Below, piece after piece: positions 40,326 through 63,112 of a stretch of DNA of 64,000 nucleotides (positions within the stretch are counted from its first letter, which is position 1; each line of letters opens with the position of its first letter). The notes beneath the pieces were generated by a model. It saw nothing but the letters and a program-made list of their open reading frames with translations. It was not told the origin of the DNA and made no database searches. This DNA is from Dehalococcoidia bacterium (lineage in GTDB: Bacteria; Chloroflexota; Dehalococcoidia; Bin125), in contig OZ244071.1 in assembly GCA_965215555.1 (NCBI GenBank), forward strand, positions 2,517,647 to 2,581,646, written 5' to 3'. A program made the position numbers and the translations under genes.

Positions 40326-40733
40326 ATGACAGACAATGCAGTCAACGCACCAGAGCTCAACGTTCAGATCGGCGATGCATGCGAGATTGACCCCGCAGCA
40401 GGCCCCATTGAGGCCCGTGAGGCCGATCCCAACGCCGATCGCGACGTCCTGCTCTACATCACCGTCTGGTGCGGCGACTGCCGCCGAGCGGTGCGCTTTC
40501 TCGACGAATTCGAGATCCCATACCGAACCATCGACATCGAAGAAGACACAGAAGCCGCTCGAGCGGTCGAGATGCACAATGGTGGCAGCCGCTCAGTGCC
40601 TACCATCCTGATCGATGGAGAGCACGTCGCCACCGAGCCCAGCCGAGCAGAACTCGTCAACATCTTCGGCGTTGTAGAAGAGGAAGCGACCCGCGGCGGC
40701 CGGAGTCCGTTCAGTCTGCTTCGTCGTCGCTGA
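40326..40733 (+). CDS. Glutaredoxin-like protein (NrdH/mycoredoxin-type, CxxC = WCGDC) with N-terminal extension
   Basis: VLLYITVWCGDCRRAVRFL...RSVPTILIDGEHV thioredoxin-fold pattern. Confidence 0.6.
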   Translation: MTDNAVNAPELNVQIGDACEIDPAAGPIEAREADPNADRDVLLYITVWCGDCRRAVRFLDEFEIPYRTIDIEEDTEAARAVEMHNGGSRSVPTILIDGEHVATEPSRAELVNIFGVVEEEATRGGRSPFSLLRRR

Positions 40734-41814
40734 TCACATGCACGTCCGCCGGCGCAAACCTCGCGACGGCCGCGTCTCCAACCGACAGTCCCAGCTCATC
40801 CCACATCGTCACCGGAGTATCAACGGTCAGTTGTAGCCGGCCACTCGTCAGGTTGGCCCGAACCACCGGCCCTCGAGGCCTGACCGTTTGCACAAATGTA
40901 CGAAGCTGATTCTCTGTCCCTGCTTCGGAGGGAACGCTTCCGCCCCCGTCCTGTGTCAGCACAATCCGCTCCGGCCGGACGCAGAGCAGCGCCGGCGATC
41001 CTGGAGCAATCGACTTCGCTGTCGACGCCAGACGAATGCCTCCCGCCTCGTAGACGCCCGACTCCGAGCGTCGCCCATGCCACAGGTTTTCCATCCCCAC
41101 AAACTCAGCGACCGCGCGGTCGGCGGGCCGTTCAAAGACCTCCGAGGGACGACCAGTCTGCCGCAGTTGTCCATCAATCAACAGAGCCGCCTCGTCTCCA
41201 AGGCGCAATGCTTCATCGCGGTCGTGTGTGACCAGCACCGTGGTCGGACGTGTCTCGGAGAGATTCTCGGCGAAGTCCTCAATCAACCCCTCCCGAGTCG
41301 GCGCGTCGACTCCCGCAAACGGCTCGTCCAGCAACATCACTTCCGGCTGCGAGGCAAAGGCTCGCGCCAAACTGACCCGCTGAGCTTCCCCGCCCGACAA
41401 CTGTCGCGCATGGCGTTGGGCCAACGAGGCAATCCCAAATCGCTCCAGCCAATGCTCTGCTAGCTCGCGCCGCCTTCGTTTACCGACCCCGCGCAGCCTG
41501 AGCGGCAGTTCAACATTCGCCTGAACCGACATGCTCAGCAACAGGGGTTCCTGGAACGCCGCCGACATCCGCCGCCGCGTGGCGACCGGATCGGCATTCA
41601 TCGGTTCGCCATCAAGCATCAGTGTTCCCTGAGATGGATGAAGCACAAGCTGCAGCGCGCCCAGGAGCGTCGACTTACCCGATCCATTGGGACCAAGTAC
41701 CACGGTCACCAATCCGCGAGGGATGTCCAGTTTGTCGATTTCCAGCACCGTCACGCGGCCGCGCTGAACGGCAATGTCCCGGATCTCCAGATGAGCGTCA
41801 GGGCGCGTTGTCAT
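40711..41814 (-). CDS. ABC transporter ATP-binding protein with C-terminal TOBE domain (TupC/ModC-like)
   Basis: Walker A GPNGSGKST, signature LSGGEAQRVSLARA, Walker B LLDEP. C-terminal TOBE-like beta domain. Confidence 0.8.
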   Translation of the reverse strand: MTTRPDAHLEIRDIAVQRGRVTVLEIDKLDIPRGLVTVVLGPNGSGKSTLLGALQLVLHPSQGTLMLDGEPMNADPVATRRRMSAAFQEPLLLSMSVQANVELPLRLRGVGKRRRRELAEHWLERFGIASLAQRHARQLSGGEAQRVSLARAFASQPEVMLLDEPFAGVDAPTREGLIEDFAENLSETRPTTVLVTHDRDEALRLGDEAALLIDGQLRQTGRPSEVFERPADRAVAEFVGMENLWHGRRSESGVYEAGGIRLASTAKSIAPGSPALLCVRPERIVLTQDGGGSVPSEAGTENQLRTFVQTVRPRGPVVRANLTSGRLQLTVDTPVTMWDELGLSVGDAAVARFAPADVHVISDDEAD

Positions 41815-47145: not shown

Positions 47146-48684
47146 TCAACTGCCTTCGACAGACGCCAACGAGACCACCTCGGTGTCAGGATGGAACGCC
47201 TGCCAGGCGAACCAGAAATGGTCCGAGTGAATCACCCGAGTGAGCTGCGAACCTTCGAGCTCGCCCCGAATCCCACGTCCAAAGATGTCCCAGATCGTGC
47301 CGGTCTCGGCATCGACAAACGTCTGACCTGCTTCATCATCGGGATTGGGAGCAAAGGTCAACGACCGACCATCCAGCGACGATTCAAACACCGCCGTCGT
47401 TCCAACCTCTCGCCCATCGCGCAAGATTCCCGAATCGAGAATCGAGGTCGCGCCCGGCGTCCAGAACACGACCAGGTCGATGCCGTCGAACGAATCGTGA
47501 AGCACGCCCTGAGCCGACACCGCCGACCACGCATACGCGATCGCCGCCCCCGACCGTCCTTCGATGCTCACGACACGTTCCGCCGGAGGCAGCCGCTCAT
47601 CAATGCTGTCGCGGTCGAAGAAGAATGTGTAGGGACCGCCATTCTCGGGATCGTCATAGCCGCGGTACGGATTCTGACCGTACGACCGGGCCCAACCGGT
47701 ATCGCGAGACATCACCAACGCGTCGGGATAGGCGAATCGCAACTGACCCAGGGTGACCACCGTCGCCGGCACATAGCTGAGCCGCGCCCCAACCATCCGG
47801 CCGACAATCGCCCGACCCGATGACTGTTGCCACAGAGACTCGGTATTGCGGTCGTACATGACCAGGTCGGAATTGCGCAGCAGACCCGAGACGCCAAATT
47901 TGTAGACCTCTTCGCCAATCTGCGACTCAAACGCAATCGCCGTGTTGCACAGCGGACAGAAGGTCACCGTCACGGGCATGCCGCCAATGACATCGTTGAC
48001 GATCTCGTGCCAGGTCAGAATCTCCAGCGGGAACGCCCGCACATCGCCGTTGACGTTCACCTGCACCATCGGCACGTTGTCGGTGTAGTAGTCCGACGCC
48101 TCCAGGATCGACACATACAGCGGGCCGGAGATCGCTGGGATCGCGTCGCGACCAGCGCCCTGCGAAATCTCGGCGAAATCAACGATCCTGATCCCCCACG
48201 CCGTCCCCCAGTCGAGACCGAAGTACTGCGGCCGTTCGGAGTCGCGAATGATCGGGATGCCCTCTGGCGTCTCTGTCGCGTCCAGCGGCAAGTATGTGTC
48301 TGCCACCATCGCCTGATCAGCCGTCTGCTGCTGAGCGTCCTGTGGCTGGGCCTGACGCTGCTGATGCTGCTGCGCCTGCTGGCTCTGTTGATCTTGTGCG
48401 GACTGTTGTTGCGTGAGCTGCGAGCCTGCCTGCTCGGATTCCTCTACCGCCTGTGCAGCGGACGCTTGACGGCCCTGCTCATCCTGCTCACCTTGCGCAT
48501 CCTGCTCGACATCTTGCGCGACCTGGTTCTGTCGCTCTTCGGTGCCGCCCGCGGACTGTTGCTGAGCCATCTCCTCGATGTCGTCGCTGCACCCCACCAG
48601 CGTCAGTCCGACGACCGCGATGGCTATCCCCGCTGTACCGACCGTTCGCGCAAAGTTTCGTATGATTTCCATAGCCCTGAGCAT
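47146..48684 (-). CDS. DUF3179-domain lipoprotein with Q-rich linker
   Basis: Lipobox LTLVGCSD, then about 100 aa Q/E/A-rich. TVTFCPLCNTA (the PLCN hallmark of DUF3179). Confidence 0.7.
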   Translation of the reverse strand: MLRAMEIIRNFARTVGTAGIAIAVVGLTLVGCSDDIEEMAQQQSAGGTEERQNQVAQDVEQDAQGEQDEQGRQASAAQAVEESEQAGSQLTQQQSAQDQQSQQAQQHQQRQAQPQDAQQQTADQAMVADTYLPLDATETPEGIPIIRDSERPQYFGLDWGTAWGIRIVDFAEISQGAGRDAIPAISGPLYVSILEASDYYTDNVPMVQVNVNGDVRAFPLEILTWHEIVNDVIGGMPVTVTFCPLCNTAIAFESQIGEEVYKFGVSGLLRNSDLVMYDRNTESLWQQSSGRAIVGRMVGARLSYVPATVVTLGQLRFAYPDALVMSRDTGWARSYGQNPYRGYDDPENGGPYTFFFDRDSIDERLPPAERVVSIEGRSGAAIAYAWSAVSAQGVLHDSFDGIDLVVFWTPGATSILDSGILRDGREVGTTAVFESSLDGRSLTFAPNPDDEAGQTFVDAETGTIWDIFGRGIRGELEGSQLTRVIHSDHFWFAWQAFHPDTEVVSLASVEGS

Positions 48685-48763
48685 ACGCGCCGACCTAATG
48701 ATCAGCGACTCGCTCGGGGTTGGATTTGCAAGCTCACATCTCGCTCGAACTCGGAGCGCCCCT

Positions 48764-49198
48764 ATGTCTGCCGACGAATCGAGTCAAGACTCCTCCAACG
48801 ATCGCGGCGCCGTGCTCGAAGCCAATCGTGCGTTCTATGAGGCATTCAACGCTCGTGACATCGAAGCCATGGCCGACCTCTGGCAACGCGGCGACGACGT
48901 GACCTGCATTCACCCGCACCGCAACGTGACCAGGGGACATGCCGACATCCAACGCACCTGGCGCGCCATCCTGACGAACCCGGACCAGCCCAAGATTGTC
49001 TTCGCCGCTGAGGAAGCACGAGTCGTCGGCGATATTGGCATCGTCGCCGGACGCGAGGTCGTGGCCGGCGTGCCGATCGTCGCCACCAACATCTACCAAC
49101 GCTCGCAGAGCGCCGACCTGACCGACAACGCTGACACACCGGACAACACCTGGCTGCTAATCCATCATCACGGCAGCCCGGTCCTGCATACCGACTAA
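48764..49198 (+). CDS. NTF2-like / SnoaL-like small protein (DUF4440-type)
   Basis: LEANRAFYEAFNARDIEAMADLW typical of SnoaL-like folds. ATG 48764 is in frame within ORF 48578..49198. Confidence 0.55.
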   Translation: MSADESSQDSSNDRGAVLEANRAFYEAFNARDIEAMADLWQRGDDVTCIHPHRNVTRGHADIQRTWRAILTNPDQPKIVFAAEEARVVGDIGIVAGREVVAGVPIVATNIYQRSQSADLTDNADTPDNTWLLIHHHGSPVLHTD

Positions 49199-49247
49199 CC
49201 CCACCGCCCATCGCCAAAGAGCACGAACAAGCACGAAAGAGCACGCC

Positions 49248-49721
49248 ATGCCCGTCACTCTCGCCAAAGGCGACCAGGCGCCCGACTTCCAACTCCCCGA
49301 CCAGGACGGCAAGACGCACAAGCTTGCCGATTATGCCGGTCAGACCGTGGTCCTCTACTTCTATCCCCGCGACGACACCCCAGGTTGCACCAAGCAGGCC
49401 TGCTCCTTGCGCGACGACATGTCCGAGATCCAGGCCGAGGGAGCGGTCGTACTCGGCGTCTCAGCCGACGACGCCGACTCACACCAACAGTTCCGCGCCA
49501 AGTACGATCTCAACTTCCCGCTGCTGGTTGATTCCGATACAGAAGTCTCGACCAGTTACGGCGCCTGGGGGGAAAAGACGCTCTACGGGCGCAAGAGCAT
49601 AGGCATGACCCGTGCTACCTTCATCATCGGACCGGATGGCGTGCTGACGAAAGTCTGGAAACGCGCCAAGGCCGCCGATCATGGCCAAGCGGTCCTCAAG
49701 GCCTTGCGGGCAGGCCGTTAA
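49248..49721 (+). CDS. bcp: Peroxiredoxin Bcp (thioredoxin-dependent thiol peroxidase)
   Basis: GDQAPDFQLPDQDGKTHKLADYAGQTVVLYFYPRDDTPGCT. Confidence 0.85.
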   Translation: MPVTLAKGDQAPDFQLPDQDGKTHKLADYAGQTVVLYFYPRDDTPGCTKQACSLRDDMSEIQAEGAVVLGVSADDADSHQQFRAKYDLNFPLLVDSDTEVSTSYGAWGEKTLYGRKSIGMTRATFIIGPDGVLTKVWKRAKAADHGQAVLKALRAGR

Positions 49722-49754
49722 GTAACCACTCGTCCGCCTAGATCGAGTCCCCTC

Positions 49755-52175
49755 ATGACACGGTTCTTCAAACAGGCGCTCGGCGCCGGTCTTGCGTTGC
49801 TCGTGGCCGCGGCCATACTGATCGGCTGCTCGGACGATGATCAGGCTCAGCAGCAACAACAGCAACAGGAGCAGCAGTCGAGTACGGCTGCGTCGACTCC
49901 ATCGAGCTCGTCCCAGGATCAGGACCAGCAACAGCAGCAACAAGAACAACCGCAGCAGCAACAGCAGCAGCGGATGGTGTCAGGCGAGCCGCTCAAGATC
50001 GTCGTCTCGACCCAAGTGATCGCCGATTGGGTGCGCCAGGTCGGTGGCGAGAACGTCGAGGTCATTGCCCTCGTTCCCGCCGGCGCCGACGCACACACGA
50101 TCGAGCTGAGCGTCGCTGACATCCGTGCCGTCGCAGACGCCGACCTCGTGATCATCAACGGAGCCGGCCTCGAGGCCTCATACGAGGACGCCGTCCTCGA
50201 GAATGCCGACCACGTTCTCAACCTCGCCGAAGCGATCGAAGAGGCCGGCTTTGAGCTCGCACCGTTCGGTGCCACGGAGATGGCTCACGACGACCATGAT
50301 GACCACGACGACCACGACGACCACGGCGACGAAGAAATGCACGACGACGATCACGGTTCGGCCGAGGCCATCGGCAGACTGTTGATCGCTGACGCGATTG
50401 AGGCGCATCTCTCCGTCATCGACCTCTCACACGAGGAAGTCGACAGCGGACTGTTCTCGATTGCCGCCCCAGGCGCCCGAGTCTTGCCAAGTCCGACTCA
50501 CCGTTACGGCTTCGTCCTCGCGCGTGGACCTGAAGACAACGACGACCGCGTCCACATCTTCGACGGTGGCCTGTTCCTGGTTGAGCACGGAGACCACTTC
50601 GACCTGGTCCGGGAACCGGTCAGCCGCCACTCGCTCGAGATCGTCGAAGAGAACCCGATTCACTACGTCAACAGCCACGGCTGGACGGCGATCTTCGCCG
50701 ACACCAGCGGTCACGTGATCCTGATCAACGAAGCCGATCTGACCAGCGCCACGGGCGACTACGAGCCGATCGTGCTCGAGGCTGGACCGCACCACGGCGC
50801 AGCGCTGGTCATGACCGACGAACACGTTGTGGTCACGACCAAGAACACCGACGATCTGGAAGACGCACTGCCGTTCGGCGTCGAGGTTCGCACCTTCGAC
50901 GACGAGGTCGTCTACGACGCCAGCAACCGCTCTTGCCCAGGCATGCACGGCGAGTCGCACAACGAGCATGGAGCGGCCTTCGGCTGCATCGGCGGCGTGC
51001 TCTTCCTGCACGCTCACGATGGTGAGTACGAGCATGAGTTCATCGCCAATCCGCCCGAGATGCGCGAAGAGTCACGAATCGGCTCGGTCTACGGACACCA
51101 CCACGTCGAGCACTTCTTCGGCAAGGCCTCTTACTTCGATGGCCAGGGCTTCGCTGACGACGGCATCTGGCTGATAGACGTCGCCCACGGCGAAATGAGC
51201 CAGGTGTTCAGCGAACCGAGCGTTTCGGCGAAGTTCTCCAGCGATGGCGAAATGCTGTACGTGCTCGGCACTGACGGCATCCTCCATGCGCTCGACGCGC
51301 ATGACGGCGAGCTGCTCGACACCATGGAGCTGGTCGCGCCGGGCGAAGCTGGAAATCCCGCCATGATCATCGTTGGCGAGATGATGTACGTCGCCGACCC
51401 GAACAGCGGTCATGTCCTTGCCGTGCACCTCCACGACATGGAGATCGAAGAGGAATGGGAAGTCGGTGGCGCACCGTCGAGCTTGGCTTTCGTTGGCGTA
51501 GTTGATTCGCACGACTCGCCCGACGCCGGCCACGACGACCACGACGAAGAAGAGCACGAACAGGACGATCACGGCCACGACGACGAGGAAGATCACGAGC
51601 AGGATGATCACGGCCACGACGACGAGGACGATCACGAGCAGGATGATCACGGGCACGCCCACGATCATGGCGACGAGGATCCGCACTTCTGGTTCGACGC
51701 CGACCTGGCCGCTGTCGCCATTGAGGCAATCGCCGTAGAACTCAGCCACCTGAACCCGGGTGCCGCTGACACCTTCAGCGACCGTCTCGACCTCTACCTC
51801 GCCCAAATCGAGGAAGCCGACGCTGAAGTGCGTGCGCTGCTCGAAGGTGTGACCGACACCCAGCGTCTACTGGTCACGTTCCATGATGCATTCGGCTACT
51901 TCGCCCGCCGCTACGGCCTCGAGATCGCCGGCTTCGTTGTCGAGGGACCAGAGCAGGGGATTAGCGCAGGGGCGTTAACTGAGCTGATCGAACTCATCGA
52001 ACACGAAGGCGTGGAAACGGTCTTCCATGAGCCACAGTTCGACTCAGCGATCCTCGACACCGTCGCCGACGAAACTGGAGCTGGTCGCGGAATCATCTGG
52101 TCGCAGCCGACCGAAGACAACCCGACTTACATCGGCATCCTCGTTGGCAACGCGAAGGCCATCGCCGAGCAGTAA
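49755..52175 (+). CDS. ZnuA/TroA-like metal-binding lipoprotein (SBP family 9) carrying a roughly 400-aa insertion flanked by two His/Asp-rich tracts
   Basis: Lipobox LIGCSDDD plus a Q-rich linker. N-lobe KIVVSTQVIADWVRQVGGENVEVIALVP..DAHTIE. C-lobe DPHFWFD...FHDAFGYFARRYGLE...HEPQF. Between them, from the first His/Asp tract (50285-50345) to DPHFW, lie about 440 aa including a repeat-containing domain and the His-rich coding repeats at 51527-51690. Confidence 0.7.
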   Translation: MTRFFKQALGAGLALLVAAAILIGCSDDDQAQQQQQQQEQQSSTAASTPSSSSQDQDQQQQQQEQPQQQQQQRMVSGEPLKIVVSTQVIADWVRQVGGENVEVIALVPAGADAHTIELSVADIRAVADADLVIINGAGLEASYEDAVLENADHVLNLAEAIEEAGFELAPFGATEMAHDDHDDHDDHDDHGDEEMHDDDHGSAEAIGRLLIADAIEAHLSVIDLSHEEVDSGLFSIAAPGARVLPSPTHRYGFVLARGPEDNDDRVHIFDGGLFLVEHGDHFDLVREPVSRHSLEIVEENPIHYVNSHGWTAIFADTSGHVILINEADLTSATGDYEPIVLEAGPHHGAALVMTDEHVVVTTKNTDDLEDALPFGVEVRTFDDEVVYDASNRSCPGMHGESHNEHGAAFGCIGGVLFLHAHDGEYEHEFIANPPEMREESRIGSVYGHHHVEHFFGKASYFDGQGFADDGIWLIDVAHGEMSQVFSEPSVSAKFSSDGEMLYVLGTDGILHALDAHDGELLDTMELVAPGEAGNPAMIIVGEMMYVADPNSGHVLAVHLHDMEIEEEWEVGGAPSSLAFVGVVDSHDSPDAGHDDHDEEEHEQDDHGHDDEEDHEQDDHGHDDEDDHEQDDHGHAHDHGDEDPHFWFDADLAAVAIEAIAVELSHLNPGAADTFSDRLDLYLAQIEEADAEVRALLEGVTDTQRLLVTFHDAFGYFARRYGLEIAGFVVEGPEQGISAGALTELIELIEHEGVETVFHEPQFDSAILDTVADETGAGRGIIWSQPTEDNPTYIGILVGNAKAIAEQ

Positions 52176-52205
52176 GTCGACCATTGGCAGCTAGGCTGAA
52201 CAGCG

Positions 52206-52784
52206 ATGTCAGATCGACTCGCAACACCTCAGCCGAAGCAGTCCAAGCACAACATGGTCTGGATCGACCTCGAAATGACGGGGCTCGATCCAGGCCGTGA
52301 CGTGATCATCGAAGCCGCCGTCCTGATCACCGACGCCGAACTCAACATCATCGCTGACGGCCCAGACTTCGCGATTCAACGCAGCAAAGAAGAACTCAGC
52401 GTGATGAACGCCTGGAATCGGCGCACCCATTACGGCTCTGGGTTAATCAAGCGAGTCAACGCCTCCGATGTGACCATCGAGCAGGCTGAAGAGGAAATCC
52501 TCGAATTCGTCCGGCAGTGGACGACCGAAGGCGACGCGCCCCTCTGCGGTAACTCCGTCCATCAAGACAAGCGGTTCCTGTATCTGGAGATGCCGCGTCT
52601 GGTTGAGTGGCTCAACTACCGAATCGTCGATGTCTCGACCGTCAAAGAACTGGCCAAGCGTTGGTATCCGGACCTGGAGAAGTTCGTCAAGCAGGAACAA
52701 CACCGAGCCATGGATGACATCCGCGAGTCCATCGACGAATTGCGCTGGTATCGGCAGCAGATCTTCAAGAACGCTGAACAGTAA
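52206..52784 (+). CDS. orn: Oligoribonuclease
   Basis: MVWIDLEMTGLDP..., CGNSVHQDKRFL..., DEDI exonuclease motifs. Confidence 0.9.
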   Translation: MSDRLATPQPKQSKHNMVWIDLEMTGLDPGRDVIIEAAVLITDAELNIIADGPDFAIQRSKEELSVMNAWNRRTHYGSGLIKRVNASDVTIEQAEEEILEFVRQWTTEGDAPLCGNSVHQDKRFLYLEMPRLVEWLNYRIVDVSTVKELAKRWYPDLEKFVKQEQHRAMDDIRESIDELRWYRQQIFKNAEQ

Positions 52785-52801
52785 GCGCCGGCGTCTGCCG
52801 C

Positions 52802-53791
52802 CTACTCTCGCCAGGGTGCCAATCGGGAACCGACACGGCAACACGCACCCCAGCACACTCCCCCGAGTAGGCAGCACATCCCCCAACACACGCGAGGAGT
52901 GCGTTGCCATCCGGGAAAGTCTCCACCCTGGCCGACAGCCGCGCTCAGGCCGAAGTTGGGCAGCGCCTCGCGTAAGCCTCGTGGGCTGAGCACAAAGATG
53001 ATCCCCAGCAGCAAGACCGCAGTGAGCACGATCGAGGGTCCGGCCGCAAAGTCGAGGTGGAACGACGCATACAGGCCAAGCACCGTCGACACGATGCCGA
53101 TCAATGCCGCAAACAGCATCATTGTGGTCAACTGGCGGGAGATCAGCACCGATGCCGCGGCCGGAGTCACTAGCATCGCCACCGCCAGAATCACGCCGAC
53201 CAGCCGAAACGCGACCACGGTCGCCAGTGCGATCAGGACCAGTAGTCCGATCTGCATCAGTGTCACCGGCACGCCCGAGACCTCGGCCACCTCTGGGTCA
53301 TAGGCGGTAAACCGCAGCTCGGGCAGGAACGCCAACACCGCGATCAGCACCACGCCCGTCAGGATCGCCATCACGATCAGATCAGTCCACGACGCGCCCA
53401 GGATGTGCCCAACCAGCAACGAGCCCAGATCAACCGCGAACGTTCGCTGCCGAGAGATCAGCAGCACGCCCAGGGCGAAGAACCCGGCGAACATGATCCC
53501 AATCGCTGTGTCTTCTCGCAGCCGACCGCGAAGCGTCAGCAGCGCGACGCCCAGCGCTGTCAACACCGCCGCGATGCCCGCGCCGAGCGTAATCAGGACC
53601 GTGCCACCGCCCAGCACCAACGCCACCGCCGCACCGGCGAGTTGCGTATGAGCCACCGCGTCGCCCAGAAATGCCAGGCCGCGCAGGACGACAAACACGC
53701 CAACCATGCCCGCAGCCACCGACACCACGATGCCAGCCAACAGGGCGCGCTGCATGAATTCAAACGACCACGGGTCAGTCAGCCAGTCCAC
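52802..53791 (-). CDS. Metal ABC transporter permease, ABC-3 family (ZnuB/TroC-like), with unusual Cys-rich C-terminal tail
   Basis: Typical ABC-3 TM pattern (LAFLGDAVAHTQLAG...). Last about 45 aa (CWGMCCLLGGVCWGACC) lie beyond the usual family length. Confidence 0.75.
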   Translation of the reverse strand: MDWLTDPWSFEFMQRALLAGIVVSVAAGMVGVFVVLRGLAFLGDAVAHTQLAGAAVALVLGGGTVLITLGAGIAAVLTALGVALLTLRGRLREDTAIGIMFAGFFALGVLLISRQRTFAVDLGSLLVGHILGASWTDLIVMAILTGVVLIAVLAFLPELRFTAYDPEVAEVSGVPVTLMQIGLLVLIALATVVAFRLVGVILAVAMLVTPAAASVLISRQLTTMMLFAALIGIVSTVLGLYASFHLDFAAGPSIVLTAVLLLGIIFVLSPRGLREALPNFGLSAAVGQGGDFPGWQRTPRVCWGMCCLLGGVCWGACCRVGSRLAPWRE

Positions 53792-53872
53792 GCTAGCTCT
53801 TGCTAGGCCCCGGTCTGCATCTCGCCACTACCATCAGCGAAGGCAGGCAACATCTACGGCGGAGGCCTCTAC

Positions 53873-54769
53873 ATGGTACTTGAACAACAGGTCACACTGA
53901 TCACTGGCGCATCCCGCGGCTTCGGCCTCGCCGCTGCGGAAGAACTGATCGATCGCGGTCACCTGGTCATTGCCACCATGCGCAATCCCGATCGTGATCG
54001 CAACAACCTCTCCAACCTCGATCCAGCGGCCTACGAGATCGCCCAATGCGATGTCACCGATCCTGCCTCGATCGACGCCGCCGTCAGCGCGGGACTCAAA
54101 CGCTTCGGCCGCGTCGACGCGCTCTTCAACAACGCCGGCTACGGACTCTACGGCCCGGTCGAGGACATGTCCGACGACGAAGTCATGCGCCAGATGGACA
54201 CTAACTTCATCGGCCAGATTCGTATGGCCCGAGCTGTCTTGCCCGCGATGCGAGACCAACACCACGGCAAGATCATCAATGTCTCCTCGCTCGCCGGACG
54301 TATCGTCGCGCCGATGATGGGTCTCTACGCGGCCTCAAAGTGGGCCGTCGAAGCCATGTCCGAAGCGCTGCGCTACGAAGTCTCGCGCTGGAACGTCGAT
54401 GTCACGATCCTCGAACCAGGCATGTACGCCTCCGACTGGCAGACGACCAACCTCGATGTCGCCGAGGCCGTACGCGAGGGGCGCTCGCCGTACCAGGAAT
54501 CCGCCGAGCACGCGCTCAACACATTCCGCACCAGAGCGGCAACCCGCCCCGGCTCCCGCTCCGTCGCCACGGCCGTCGCCGACATCGTCGAACTCGAACA
54601 GCAACTCCCCATGCGCTGGCCCGTCGGAGAAGACACCATCCAAACCATCCGCCTCCGAGAAGCCATGACCGACCAGGAATGGGAAGCCCGAGTCCGAGGA
54701 GACACCAAGATCTACCGAGGAGCCTTCTTCCACGGAGTCGAGAATCCCATGGAAGACAAACCCCGCTGA
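53873..54769 (+). CDS. SDR family oxidoreductase
   Basis: TGASRGFGLAAA Rossmann motif, NNAG, YAASK catalytic motif. Confidence 0.85.
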   Translation: MVLEQQVTLITGASRGFGLAAAEELIDRGHLVIATMRNPDRDRNNLSNLDPAAYEIAQCDVTDPASIDAAVSAGLKRFGRVDALFNNAGYGLYGPVEDMSDDEVMRQMDTNFIGQIRMARAVLPAMRDQHHGKIINVSSLAGRIVAPMMGLYAASKWAVEAMSEALRYEVSRWNVDVTILEPGMYASDWQTTNLDVAEAVREGRSPYQESAEHALNTFRTRAATRPGSRSVATAVADIVELEQQLPMRWPVGEDTIQTIRLREAMTDQEWEARVRGDTKIYRGAFFHGVENPMEDKPR

Positions 54770-58274: not shown

Positions 58275-58577
58275 ATGGCCCGAACTTCGAATATCCATCG
58301 CGACCTCAAGCGCCGCGAAATGCACGCCAAGTACAAGGGCCGCCGCGAGGCGCTCAAGCAGCAGCTCAAAGAATCAAACAATCCGCGCGAGAAGCAGAAC
58401 ATCCAGTTCCAGCTCCAGGCATTACCGCGCAATAGCTCGCCCACGCGGATCAAGAATCGCTGCGCCGTGACCGGTCGCCCCCGCGCCTACATGCGCAAGT
58501 TCGGCCTCAGCCGCATTACCTTCCGCGAGATGGCCTCGCTCGGACTCCTGCCCGGCGTCCGCAAGAGCTCTTGGTAG
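58275..58577 (+). CDS. rpsN: 30S ribosomal protein S14, long non-zinc (C-) form, stand-alone copy
   Basis: [28 protein letters not shown]...[39 protein letters not shown]. Only one Cys, so not the Zn-ribbon type. Confidence 0.9.
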
Positions 58578-58600
58578 GCATCTGACGAGGCGTTGATCCC

Positions 58601-58650
58601 ATTTATTCAAAAACTTGCAATAAATGTAACATTGGTAAATAATCTTTCTG
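58601..58650 (+). promoter_or_regulatory. AT-rich island with TTGCAA -35-like box and 11-bp palindrome AATGTAACATT; candidate promoter/operator for the iron-type ABC transporter
   Basis: 50-nt stretch of about 25% GC in a 68% GC genome, 55 nt upstream of the fbpA-like start. The palindrome lies in the spacer region. Confidence 0.35.
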
Positions 58651-60414: not shown

Positions 60415-62022
60415 ATGACCATCTTTGGCGGTACCGCCGAGCTCCCGGCTCGACTCCGCGTCAACATCCCCATCATTTGGATGCTCGCGTTGGCCGCAGC
60501 CGGCGCCGCCTGCATTCCCCTGGTCTATCTCATCATCCGCGCCGCCGAAGCCGACGCAGACGCATGGTCCAAGGTCGTCGCCGACAGCACATTACGACTG
60601 CTGCTGAACACCGCCGGGTTGGCGGCAGCCGTCACCGCCGCCTCCGCCGCGCTGGCGCTTCCAATGGCCTACCTCACCGAGCGCACCGACCTCCCCTTCG
60701 CCCGCGTCTGGCGAACCATCACCATCATGCCCCTGGCCATCCCCTCGTATGTGGGAGCATTCGCATTCATCATTGCCCTTGGCCCGTACGGTTCGCTGCA
60801 GGACCTGCTCGCACCGCTGGGCGTCGAGAATATTCCCAGCATCTACGGATTCGTCGGCGCCTGGCTGACCCTGACCCTGTTCACCTTCCCCTACCTGTTG
60901 TTGGTCGTCCGGGCCGGACTCCGCGACCTCGACCCGGCCATCGAGGAAGCGGCTCGCTCCCTCGGACAATCAGCCTGGGGTACATTCTGGCGCGTGACGG
61001 TACCGCAGCTCAGGGTTCCCATCGCCGGAGGATCTCTGCTGGTCGCGCTCTACGTCATATCCGACTTCGGCGCCGTCTCGATGATGCAGTTCGACACGTT
61101 CACCCGTGCAATCTACGTCCGCTTCGGATCGTCGTTCGACCGTTCCAGCGTGGCCGTCCTATCCCTCGTCCTGGTCGCGTTGGTCGCCCTGGTCCTGGCC
61201 ATCGACTGGTCCCAACGACGGAGCGCCAAATATCATCGATTGGGTACTGGCGCAGCGAGAACGCCAAGATTGGTCCCGTTGAGACGACTCCGTTGGCCGG
61301 CGTTGATCGGGCTATGCGCCGTCTCAGCCATCGCGCTGCTCGTCCCGATCGGCGTGCTGTTTCACTGGCTCTCGGTGGGCCTGCAAAACGGAGAGACATT
61401 CCCCGGTGTCTGGAGCGCAGCGCTCAACTCTGTCTACGCATCAGCACTGGCCGGCGCAGTGACGGTCGCGGTCTCGATTCCGATTGCCCTCGTCGTCGTC
61501 CGTCGACCTGGATTCCTCTCCCGGATCGTCGATCGAGCCGCCTACGTCGGCTACGCATTGCCAGGTGTGATCGTCGCATTCGCATTGATTTTCTTCACCT
61601 TGCGGGTCACACCGGGCCTCTACCAGACCATCGCCACGCTCGTTTTCGCCTATGCGGTGCTCTTTCTGCCGCAGGCGATTTCCGGTGTGCGCGCTTCAAT
61701 GGTCCGCGTGCAGCCAGGACTCGAGGAAGCGGCTCGTTCACTCAATCGCACTCCCTGGCAAACCTTCTACAGCATCACTCTGCCGCTCATCGCACCAGGC
61801 GTGCTGGCAGCGTTCGCCCTCGTCTTCCTGACGACCATGAAGGAGCTGCCCGCGACCCTGCTCCTCGCGCCGATCGAGTTCGACACCTTGGCGACTACCC
61901 TTTGGGGACACCAGGAAGACGTGTTCTTCGCCCGCGCCTCAGCCGCAGCATTGCTCCTGCTCGCCTGCGCCGCACTACCAATGATGATCCTGTTCGGACG
62001 CGACCGTGAACTCCGAGCCTAG
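60415..62022 (+). CDS. Iron(III) ABC transporter permease, fused two-domain (FbpB-like)
   Basis: 535 aa, two BPD_transp_1 halves each with an EAA loop (EEAARSLGQSAW / EEAARSLNRTPW). Confidence 0.85.
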   Translation: MTIFGGTAELPARLRVNIPIIWMLALAAAGAACIPLVYLIIRAAEADADAWSKVVADSTLRLLLNTAGLAAAVTAASAALALPMAYLTERTDLPFARVWRTITIMPLAIPSYVGAFAFIIALGPYGSLQDLLAPLGVENIPSIYGFVGAWLTLTLFTFPYLLLVVRAGLRDLDPAIEEAARSLGQSAWGTFWRVTVPQLRVPIAGGSLLVALYVISDFGAVSMMQFDTFTRAIYVRFGSSFDRSSVAVLSLVLVALVALVLAIDWSQRRSAKYHRLGTGAARTPRLVPLRRLRWPALIGLCAVSAIALLVPIGVLFHWLSVGLQNGETFPGVWSAALNSVYASALAGAVTVAVSIPIALVVVRRPGFLSRIVDRAAYVGYALPGVIVAFALIFFTLRVTPGLYQTIATLVFAYAVLFLPQAISGVRASMVRVQPGLEEAARSLNRTPWQTFYSITLPLIAPGVLAAFALVFLTTMKELPATLLLAPIEFDTLATTLWGHQEDVFFARASAAALLLLACAALPMMILFGRDRELRA

Positions 62023-63112
62023 CCAACCGGACACCACTCCCGCGCTAGTCGTGAGCGAGATCTCCAAGTCGTTCGACGGGACCGACGCCGTGAACGACGT
62101 CTCATTCGAGGTCGAACAGGGAGAGATTCTCGCCCTGCTTGGTCCCAGCGGCTGCGGCAAATCAACCACCCTGCGCGTCCTGGCCGGCTTCGAGCGTCCA
62201 AATCAGGGATTAGTCCAAATCAACGGCGAGACCGCAGTCGGTCCCGCTCTGTGGCGCTCACCCGAGCAGCGTCGGATCGGGATGGTCGCACAGGACTTCG
62301 CCCTGTTCCCTCACCTCAGCGTCGGCGAGAACATCGCCTTCGGCCTGCCCGATGGTCATCACGCCTGGTGGACCAGGCAGCTACGTCGACTTTCGCGGGC
62401 GGAAACACCGATTCGAGTCCGCCACATGCTTGAGCTGGTCGGACTCGACGGCTTCGCCGATCGCTATCCACACGAACTCTCCGGCGGCGAGGCGCAGCGA
62501 GTCGCGCTGGCCCGAGCGCTCGCCCCACAACCGGCCGCCGTCCTGCTCGACGAACCGTTCAGCAACCTCGACCAAAATCTCCGCGCCAATCTCCGACTCG
62601 CCATGCGCAACATCCTCAAACACGCCAATACCGCCGCAGTATTCGTCACCCACGACCGCGAGGAAGCCCTTTCCCTCGCCGACCGCGTCGCCGTCATGCG
62701 TAACGGCCGGATCGAGCAGATCGGCGCGCCCGATGACATCTACTACCGACCCGAAACCCGGTTCATCGGCACATTCGTCGGCGACGCCAACATCCTGCCC
62801 GGAGAACGGGTCCGCGGAGGCGCTGAGACTGAGCTAGGATTCGTCGTCGTGAACCCGGCGGAGGAGACGACGGGCAAGAGTATCGATGTGCTGCTGCGTC
62901 CCGAGCAAATCGCCCTCAGGCCATGCCGCTCCCCTGGGCCCGAATGTGCCAACGTCATCAGCAGCGAATATTACGGCCACGATCAAGTCGTTCGAGTGAG
63001 ATTGCAATCAGGCCAGGAAGTCGAAGCCAGACTCCGAACCGAAGTGGTCTGGCATCCCGACGATCCAGTCGACGTCATCGTCCTCGACGACGCCATCGCC
63101 TTCCCTCGCTAG
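62006..63112 (+). CDS. ABC transporter ATP-binding protein (FbpC/PotA-like) with C-terminal TOBE domain
   Basis: GPSGCGKST, LSGGEAQRVALARAL, LLDEP. Overlaps the permease by 17 nt. Confidence 0.85.
   Translation: MNSEPSQPDTTPALVVSEISKSFDGTDAVNDVSFEVEQGEILALLGPSGCGKSTTLRVLAGFERPNQGLVQINGETAVGPALWRSPEQRRIGMVAQDFALFPHLSVGENIAFGLPDGHHAWWTRQLRRLSRAETPIRVRHMLELVGLDGFADRYPHELSGGEAQRVALARALAPQPAAVLLDEPFSNLDQNLRANLRLAMRNILKHANTAAVFVTHDREEALSLADRVAVMRNGRIEQIGAPDDIYYRPETRFIGTFVGDANILPGERVRGGAETELGFVVVNPAEETTGKSIDVLLRPEQIALRPCRSPGPECANVISSEYYGHDQVVRVRLQSGQEVEARLRTEVVWHPDDPVDVIVLDDAIAFPR

Follow-up and report, generated by a model that had tools for sequence, protein, structure and literature searches.

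The DNA analysed here (the window) is a stretch of 64,000 nucleotides from contig OZ244071.1 of a Dehalococcoidia bacterium. The subject of this work is a gene at 49755..52175 of the + strand, which encodes a substrate-binding protein (SBP) of the ZnuA/TroA class (cluster A-I) whose two lobes are separated by a homolog of the zinc metallochaperone AztD. The open reading frame (ORF) is complete and uninterrupted (806 amino acids plus stop), as had been supposed in a first-pass annotation made from the letters alone. Pfam detected ZnuA/TroA (PF01297) in two separated stretches (216.5 bits, cut-off 29), and NCBIfam gave AztC-like and AztD-like matches. The two Pfam stretches correspond to the N-lobe (KIVVSTQV...DAHTIE) and C-lobe (DPHFWFD...FHDAFGYFARRYGLE...HEPQF) recognized in the annotation, and the internal peptides quoted there were all found in the ORF. 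The gene is referred to below as SBP::AztD.

Domain order of the encoded protein

The segments are all on the + strand. The protein begins with a signal peptide (MTRFFKQALGAGLALLVAAAILIGC, 49755..49829), read from the sequence, that ends in the lipobox L-I-G-C. The column of the lipobox cysteine (Cys25) was conserved in at least 90% of alignment A1, which comprises 65 homologs, and from this motif we infer that the protein is a lipoprotein. The next segment is a Gln/Ser/Asp-rich tether (residues 26-75, 49830..49979) encoded by CAG/CAA repeats, for which Tandem Repeats Finder (TRF) detected arrays at 49848-49877 and 49926-49971. The N-lobe of the SBP (residues 76-177, 49980..50285) carries the metal ligand His114 in the motif GADAH, and the C-lobe (residues 642-806, 51678..52172; best Pfam stretch 621-805) carries the ligands His644 (DPHFW) and His710 (TFHDAF).

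Between the lobes lie approximately 465 amino acids (residues ~178-641) made up of three parts. The first is a His/Asp tract of 24 amino acids (tract 1, residues 178-201, 50286..50357), previously noted as HDDHDDHDDHDDHGDEEMHDDDHG, the second a folded domain of 384 amino acids (residues 202-585, 50358..51509) and the third a His/Asp/Glu tract of 56 amino acids (tract 2, residues 586-641, 51510..51677). Within tract 2, GHDDHDEEEHEQDDHG...HAHDHGDE (residues 592-641) directly precedes DPHFW, as annotated. The insertion is at the position of the His-rich loop of ZnuA proteins, where the annotation had placed it; the size given there (roughly 400 amino acids) has to be corrected to the approximately 465 above.

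The inserted domain is an AztD homolog

Residues 258-580 matched the NCBIfam model of the zinc metallochaperone AztD (NF038015, E=3.3e-39) over profile positions 46-354 of 356. When the insert alone was compared with PDB sequences, AztD entries were the sole matches (6cmk, 8e-18; 6ck1, 9e-15). The domain is divergent, being about 20% identical to the AztDs of solved structure. Because Pfam yielded only a sub-threshold match to PQQ_2 with the insert (18.7 bits vs 27.6), identification of the domain depended on NCBIfam. The middle part of the protein looks anomalous because Pfam sees only ZnuA, and nested proteins bear the database label ZnuA because Pfam has no AztD model.

The structure of residues 76-806 was modelled with AlphaFold2 using the 65 homologs; tether residues 26-75 were left out. 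The mean predicted local distance difference test score (pLDDT) was 82.4. Confidence was high for both lobes of the SBP and for an all-beta domain, and model residues 98-128 and 510-564, which are the His tracts, were disordered. The flanking parts formed two alpha/beta lobes with a long rigid helix, that is, a single SBP fold. In a Foldseek search with the model nine AztD chains ranked first (E 1e-26 to 1e-21, target TM 0.83-0.86), and the insert had the eight-bladed beta-propeller fold of AztD. On the strength of these structural matches both SBP lobes are predicted to reassemble around the nested domain. The segments that had been annotated as repeat-like, with a weak assignment to a propeller, do belong to a beta-propeller; they are blades of one domain and not sequence repeats. 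AztD is otherwise a free-standing secreted protein, and here the domain sits within the SBP chain.

The HMMER alignment allowed the metal ligands of Paracoccus AztD, whose roles were taken from PMC6689063, to be located in the insert. Site 2 (H99-G100-D101-H102-x-D104 in Paracoccus) corresponds to H278-G279-D280-H281-F282-D283, site 1 (H124, H167, H218) to H303, H347 and H398, and the disulfide C214-C231 to C394-C411. The ligands and the Cys pair were invariant or nearly so in A1, and were conserved to at least 97% over approximately 223 AztD domains; for site 2, His, His, and Asp or His were each found in 222 of 223. The triplet G592-H593-D594, which comes after the last propeller strand, was near-invariant in A1. 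Its histidine, H593, is probably the fourth ligand of site 2, a counterpart of the C-terminal His408 in Paracoccus.

The SBP is interrupted inside its D-loop

His114, His644 and His710 were invariant in A1 (the C-lobe pair is H569 and H635 in A1 numbering) and align with the ligand positions of PdAztC. The flanks of the insert matched AztC, MntC and ZnuA-type SBP models of NCBIfam as split hits, and the best PDB sequence match of the C-lobe was 1pq4.

The insertion point was located in a sister clade of nested proteins (e.g. P0138), whose best PDB match is PdAztC (E=1.3e-58). In the alignment the insert of this clade falls between GHYHYI and HAGAHDPH of AztC, i.e. inside the D-loop. In the window protein the 384-amino-acid domain interrupts the loop, and histidines are kept to either side of it: AHDDH... 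comes before the insert, and HGHAHDHG, which includes the invariant H636 and H638, comes after it. The conserved motif H-x-H-x-H-G (H634, H636, H638) directly precedes DPH. Tract 1 aligns with the GGGHYHYI segment of AztC and corresponds both to the N-side half of the AztC D-loop and to the N-terminal DHDHDHE motif of AztD.

The D-loop of AztC is essential for transfer from AztD (PMC7463823); its three His residues are also required, and the loop has been modelled entering the AztD pore (PMC7463823, PMC6689063). Site 2, the sole transfer-competent site of AztD, is built from its N- and C-terminal strands (PMC6689063). Since site 2 is formed by the adjacent termini of AztD, splicing the domain into the loop by these termini would place site 2 beside the mouth of the SBP cleft, a geometric argument.

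Homologs and variants of the nested architecture

More than 500 homologs came from a word-indexed search, and the leading matches were about 800 amino acids long and 55-98% identical. With HMMER, approximately 15 clusters (at 50% identity) having the full nested architecture were found among 1.84 billion representatives, some of them just 31-43% identical. From a scan of GTDB species genomes 80 loci were kept, all of them from Chloroflexota (Dehalococcoidia, Caldilineaceae). Several of these assemblies were at chromosome level, and some genomes had two copies. Judged by bin names many of the related genomes look sponge-derived, and the one-chain version appears to be common in sponge-associated and marine Chloroflexota.

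Among the retrieved proteins 173 had the order N-lobe/AztD/C-lobe, four N-lobe/AztD/AztD/C-lobe and five N-lobe/ZinT/AztD/C-lobe. The order ZnuA-ZinT-ZnuA was confirmed with Pfam for one of the latter (P0148). The window protein itself gave no ZinT (PF09223) match with Pfam or NCBIfam. Variant proteins (P0018, P0003 and P0121 at L075 and L080; P0148, P0281, P0297, P0304 and P0321 at L085; P0083 and P0085) included two tandem AztD domains in one SBP loop, ZinT and AztD nested together, and AztD-AztD or ZinT-AztD without an SBP.

These data bear on the possibility that separate SBP and AztD genes had been joined by an error of assembly or annotation. The frame is open throughout, and the architecture is shared by 173 full-length proteins and, as a single ORF, by at least 80 genomes, chromosome-level assemblies included. 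A simple joining of two genes is excluded because the SBP is split around the insert. We regard an artefact as having a negligible chance of being true, and the proposal, made with the annotation, that the central region might prove to be a separate ORF in homologs can be dismissed.

Tandem repeats and length polymorphism

Three repeat regions were detected by TRF: a 9-bp unit repeated five times in tract 1 (50286-50330, HDD repeats), a 39-bp unit in tract 2, and the CAG/CAA arrays of the Gln-rich linker. The repeat of tract 2 is in frame and extends over 51541..51664 with 3.2 copies and 90% matches (TRF score 192). Its unit encodes 13 amino acids; besides two near-perfect 39-bp copies there is a diverged one of 45 bp. 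Tandem DNA repeats had been annotated in tract 2 with a period of 36 bp, which has to be corrected to 39 bp, and tract 1 turned out to be repeat-encoded as well. No internal DNA repeats were found by TRF in the 384-amino-acid core.

The tracts of the window gene and 63 orthologs were compared. Tract 1 varied between about 10 and 70 amino acids and tract 2 between 24 and 78. The repeat units differed between lineages, nearly all tracts were encoded by tandem repeats, and each period found was a multiple of 3. Closely related alleles also differed: tract 1 has HDD four times in the window and three times in the 98%-identical alleles L002 and L010, and the length of tract 2 is 62 amino acids in the window, 65 in L001, 75 in L010 and 78 in L002. 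The locus is thus length-polymorphic in frame, without phase variation by frameshift. Since the periods are multiples of 3, the repeats are unable to switch the gene on or off by shifting the frame. The earlier proposal of a contingency-type, length-variable locus therefore holds for in-frame length polymorphism between strains and fails for on/off switching; copy number differs between close strains, and neither a frame shift nor a shift of promoter spacing was found.

It had also been proposed that the insert is a native His-rich loop which, through amplification of repeats, grew into a new repeat domain at a contingency (phase-variable) locus. The repeat-encoded junction tracts and their variation in length between strains speak for this. 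The core, however, is homologous to stand-alone AztD in both sequence and fold, which refutes the proposal for this part, and neither the lack of internal DNA repeats in the core nor the periods of the tracts fit it. As an account of the locus it is very improbable. The insert is instead a whole known protein, AztD, nested in the SBP, and the suggestion that a metal-capturing module had been grafted onto the SBP was well founded in that the insert is a homolog of a zinc metallochaperone.

Mosaic structure of the allele

Over 8 kb, which take in the flanks and the C-lobe, the window shares about 98% identity with L001. The exception is a segment of 600 bp (49700-50300) that codes for the signal peptide, the linker, the N-lobe and tract 1, where identity is 67-88% to L001, but 95-98% to L002 and L010. 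In the AztD core (50500-51500) the window, L001, L002 and L010 are 95-99.5% identical, with identity of just 70-85% in the flanks of L002 and L010. The breakpoints of this mosaic lie in the bcp-SBP spacer and in both His tracts. The pattern, seen in a comparison of few sequences, suggests recombinational exchange of modules at the locus.

A further step would be to regard the His/Asp/Glu repeats as recombination borders that make AztD a swappable and duplicable cassette. This is tentative, and we hold it to be possible rather than probable; it fits because the identity of the core exceeds that of the flanks, the breakpoints are at the tracts, and relatives with double AztD and with ZinT plus AztD exist. 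If true, co-resident Chloroflexota lineages would swap and multiply metal-capture modules in a fixed SBP scaffold.

Two other observations concern the same lineages. A stretch of the SDR gene (53900-54700) is at least 97% identical between the window and L002 and L010, lineages that are otherwise 70-80% identical to it, which suggests that recombination is frequent around the locus. L001 and L002 are one 20-kb syntenic region occurring twice on the same contig (ENA ERZ25070917, ctg125758, 4,919,024 bp), 2.45 Mb apart in like orientation and with 70-99% identity. This repeat (P0001, P0002) may represent two related genomes joined in the assembly, or a large-scale duplication giving paralogs.

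Transporter genes and regulatory sites

About 0.6 kb downstream of SBP::AztD, in convergent orientation, lies a gene for an AztB-like ABC-3 metal permease (52802..53791, - strand; Pfam ABC-3, E=3.7e-65). Its NCBIfam AztB score was 219.5 bits, below the cut-off of 280. The permease is the probable membrane partner of the SBP.

Two types of gene neighbourhood were distinguished. Type A (26 loci, the window included) has the order DUF3179(-) / SnoaL / Bcp / SBP::AztD / Orn / ABC-3 permease(-) / SDR ... C-minus S14, and the synteny of SBP and permease is kept in all 26. In type B (approximately 35 loci, proteins 53-59% identical) the order is fur-family / SBP::AztD / AztA-like ATPase / AztB-like permease. 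A perfect palindrome, TGATAnnnnnTATCA, was found upstream in 12 type-B loci (e.g. L030, 6600-6700), located either before the fur-family gene or between the fur-family and SBP::AztD genes. We consider it a candidate for a Chloroflexota Zur operator. A clade-2 member adjoins a COG0523 CobW gene.

In the window TGATAnnnnnTATCA was unmatched even with one mismatch allowed, and a Zur/Fur box search revealed no AT-rich palindrome upstream in the bcp/SBP, permease/SDR and S14 regions. Only two ABC ATPases, of about 367 amino acids each, are encoded in the window (40711..41814, - strand; 62006..63112, + strand). They are 28-31% identical to the AztA-like query and were rejected as cognate ATPases; their syntenic relatives bear a TOBE domain, and one of them is in an apparent sulfate/molybdate-type cluster.

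Proposed metal specificity and route of the metal

Putting these results together, we favour, with a probability of roughly 0.75, the interpretation that the gene product is a membrane-tethered lipoprotein in which a whole AztD is nested in the D-loop of an AztC/ZnuA-class cluster A-I SBP, and that this SBP loads itself with zinc. Low-affinity collection of zinc would fall to the His/Asp/Glu tracts, which are disordered, encoded by repeats and located where the domains join. Zinc would pass from them to the high-affinity AztD sites, namely site 2 (H278/H281/D283, probably with H593 of tract 2) and site 1 (H303/H347/H398) in the pore. Site 2 would hand it over to the SBP site (H114/H644/H710) of its own chain by way of the conserved HxHxH motif left over from the D-loop, and the loaded SBP would dock on the neighbouring ABC-3 permease, energized by an ATPase presumably encoded elsewhere. 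For the free proteins a slow bimolecular AztD-AztC association step has been reported. Fusion would replace this rate-limiting encounter by a tethered 1:1 hand-off, and would also keep the chaperone from diffusing off a cell that we assume to be single-membraned (monoderm), without a periplasm. Of this scheme, the analysis itself shows what the domains are, where the insertion lies, that the ligands and the architecture are conserved, and that relatives have a zinc-type gene context; zinc as the substrate, transfer within the chain and its direction, and the parts played by the tracts and H593 are proposals.

Several results weigh against this interpretation. Both family scores are under the curated cut-offs (AztD NF038015, 134.6 bits vs 400; AztC NF040870, 165 bits vs 350). 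At the position of the Asp ligand of AztC (LYSDALS), which we take from PdAztC and TroA to be Asp279, the window protein has Gln784 (IWSQP), which makes its SBP site differ in detail from that of AztC. Type-B relatives have Gly at this position, and the P0138 clade has Asp; over the nested proteins Gln was counted 83 times, Gly 27, Asp 27, Glu 19 and His 10. The predicted TM-score (pTM) of the model is 0.57, and the placing of site 2 relative to the SBP cleft is a prediction, as are metal binding and zinc transfer for every member of the nested architecture. Finally, a Zur box and a ZnuC gene had been proposed as checks in the first-pass annotation, and no ZnuC/AztA-type ATPase, Fur/Zur-family gene or Zur-like palindrome was found in the 64-kb window; zinc regulation and the transporter partners are therefore deduced from the relatives.

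Some of these results would also suit import of another metal (Mn, Fe, Ni or Co), with the propeller serving as chaperone for that metal. The Asp ligand is replaced and the fourth-ligand residue varies by clade, the Zur box is absent from the window, and the top NCBIfam SBP score was that of Deinococcus MntC (174 bits vs 165 for AztC), a lead that is not meaningful because every SBP score is below its cut-off. In zinc-type SBPs the third ligand is His, and in manganese-type SBPs such as PsaA and MntC it is Glu. The window protein has three His ligands, with His in the third place (FHDAF), and the zinc ligands of AztD are all conserved. Relatives nest ZinT together with AztD and have COG0523 and fur-family neighbours. 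The type-B and clade-2 contexts point to zinc, as do the C-minus S14 gene 6 kb downstream in the window, the SBP site made up of His alone, and the ZinT domains nested in relatives; a different metal seems quite improbable.

On another reading the AztD domain could be functional without feeding its own SBP. It might be a surface store or buffer of zinc, a donor in trans to other SBPs, or a regulatory plug gating the cleft. Several genomes encode two or three such lipoproteins, some 'orphan' copies being without nearby transporter genes; no part in transfer is known for site 1 of AztD (PMC6689063), the model defines no interdomain pose, and the long flexible tracts (24 and 56 amino acids) would permit reach in trans. 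Set against this are the location of the insertion, exactly in the loop that mediates transfer, and the retention of the conserved HxHxH beside the DPH ligand. Moreover, site 2 is formed by the very termini that join the SBP (PMC6689063), and tethering at two ends would create a very high local concentration in cis. Roles of this kind are unlikely, though the least so of the alternatives considered, and transfer within the chain to the protein's own SBP site is the reading that we prefer.

Comparison with known systems

The closest known system is AztABCD of Paracoccus denitrificans (PDB 5w57, 6ck1, 6cmk), in which AztC is the SBP and AztD a free metallochaperone. Common to both are the two folds, AztD sites 1 and 2, the disulfide, the three SBP histidines, the His-rich AztD termini, a predicted contact through the D-loop and an AztB-like permease; relatives of the window gene also share the AztA-like ATPase and a fur-family gene upstream. 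Unlike AztABCD, the window protein is a single chain with AztD nested in the D-loop and is predicted to be a lipoprotein on a long Gln-rich tether. Its His tracts are much longer and repeat-encoded, it has Gln in place of Asp279, its scores are below the cut-offs, and in the window neither an ATPase nor a regulator shares an operon with its gene.

A precedent for joining an SBP and a chaperone is the ZnuA-ZinT fusion AdcA of streptococci, in which a C-terminal ZinT domain of lipocalin-like fold follows the ZnuA-like domain end-to-end. The window protein resembles AdcA in the covalent link between SBP and zinc-recruiting domain, in being a putative monoderm lipoprotein and in the logic of intramolecular delivery. 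It differs in that its additional domain is the beta-propeller AztD and interrupts the loop of the SBP, and some relatives nest both ZinT and AztD. The ZnuA proteins with long loops (E. coli and Synechocystis; 2osv, 1pq4) have in common with it the three-His site without Asp and, in the corresponding place, a disordered loop that is acidic and rich in His, but their loops are of about 20-40 amino acids and contain no folded domain.

Literature searches for AztD fusions or insertions, for ZnuA combined with a propeller, and for zinc in sponge Chloroflexi did not return a description of this architecture. In the searchable literature AztD is described only as a free protein, and AdcA-ZinT is the only SBP-chaperone fusion.

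Direct zinc transfer between AztD and AztC is transient and so far known from a docking model only. AztD spliced into the very loop that was modelled through it gives independent evolutionary ("Rosetta-stone") support to the partnership of AztC and AztD and to the parts assigned in it to site 2 and the D-loop. The single-chain protein could be a stable target for capturing the transfer complex structurally. With this family the principle of AdcA (SBP-ZinT) reaches a second group of chaperones as well as nested fusions, double ones among them. The distribution of the architecture suggests that zinc scavenging is a strong selective pressure in the sponges and the ocean, where these Chloroflexota are abundant.

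Other features of the region

A scan for sigma-70 promoters over 48600-54000 gave nothing, and terminator-like matches in this region were at chance level. A conserved non-coding motif, GTCCGCCTAGATCG, is located at 49732..49745 (+), 9 nt before the start codon of SBP::AztD. Its core, CGCCTAGA, was present in 26 of 26 type-A loci, even at about 55% protein identity. The exact motif occurs a single time in the window, and no second copy beyond chance was found there. Possible roles are those of a promoter or operator, for example as a -10-like sequence of a near-leaderless transcript or as the site of a regulator. Just 5' of the bcp start codon (49216-49245) a 10-bp direct repeat of the AAGAGCACGA type is present three times, in the window and its closest relative L001 only.

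Six kb downstream of SBP::AztD an isolated gene (58275-58577, +) encodes a ribosomal protein S14 of 100 amino acids with a single Cys, the zinc-independent C-minus form. Most type-A loci have this gene in a syntenic position. C-minus S14 paralogs often belong to zinc-limitation responses. After the S14 gene, at 58600-58650, the window (62% GC) contains an AT-rich segment, CATTTATTCAAAAACTTGCAATAAATGTAACATTGGTAAATAATC, upstream of a cluster for a Fe(III)-type SBP, permease and ATPase (58706 onward); this segment could be a Fur-box-like operator or a promoter.

On the other side of the locus, a divergent gene (47146-48684, -) encodes a DUF3179 protein of 512 amino acids that has an N-terminal Gln/Glu-rich tether of its own. 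It was found beside the locus in all type-A relatives, and its constant association with the zinc SBP may have some significance.

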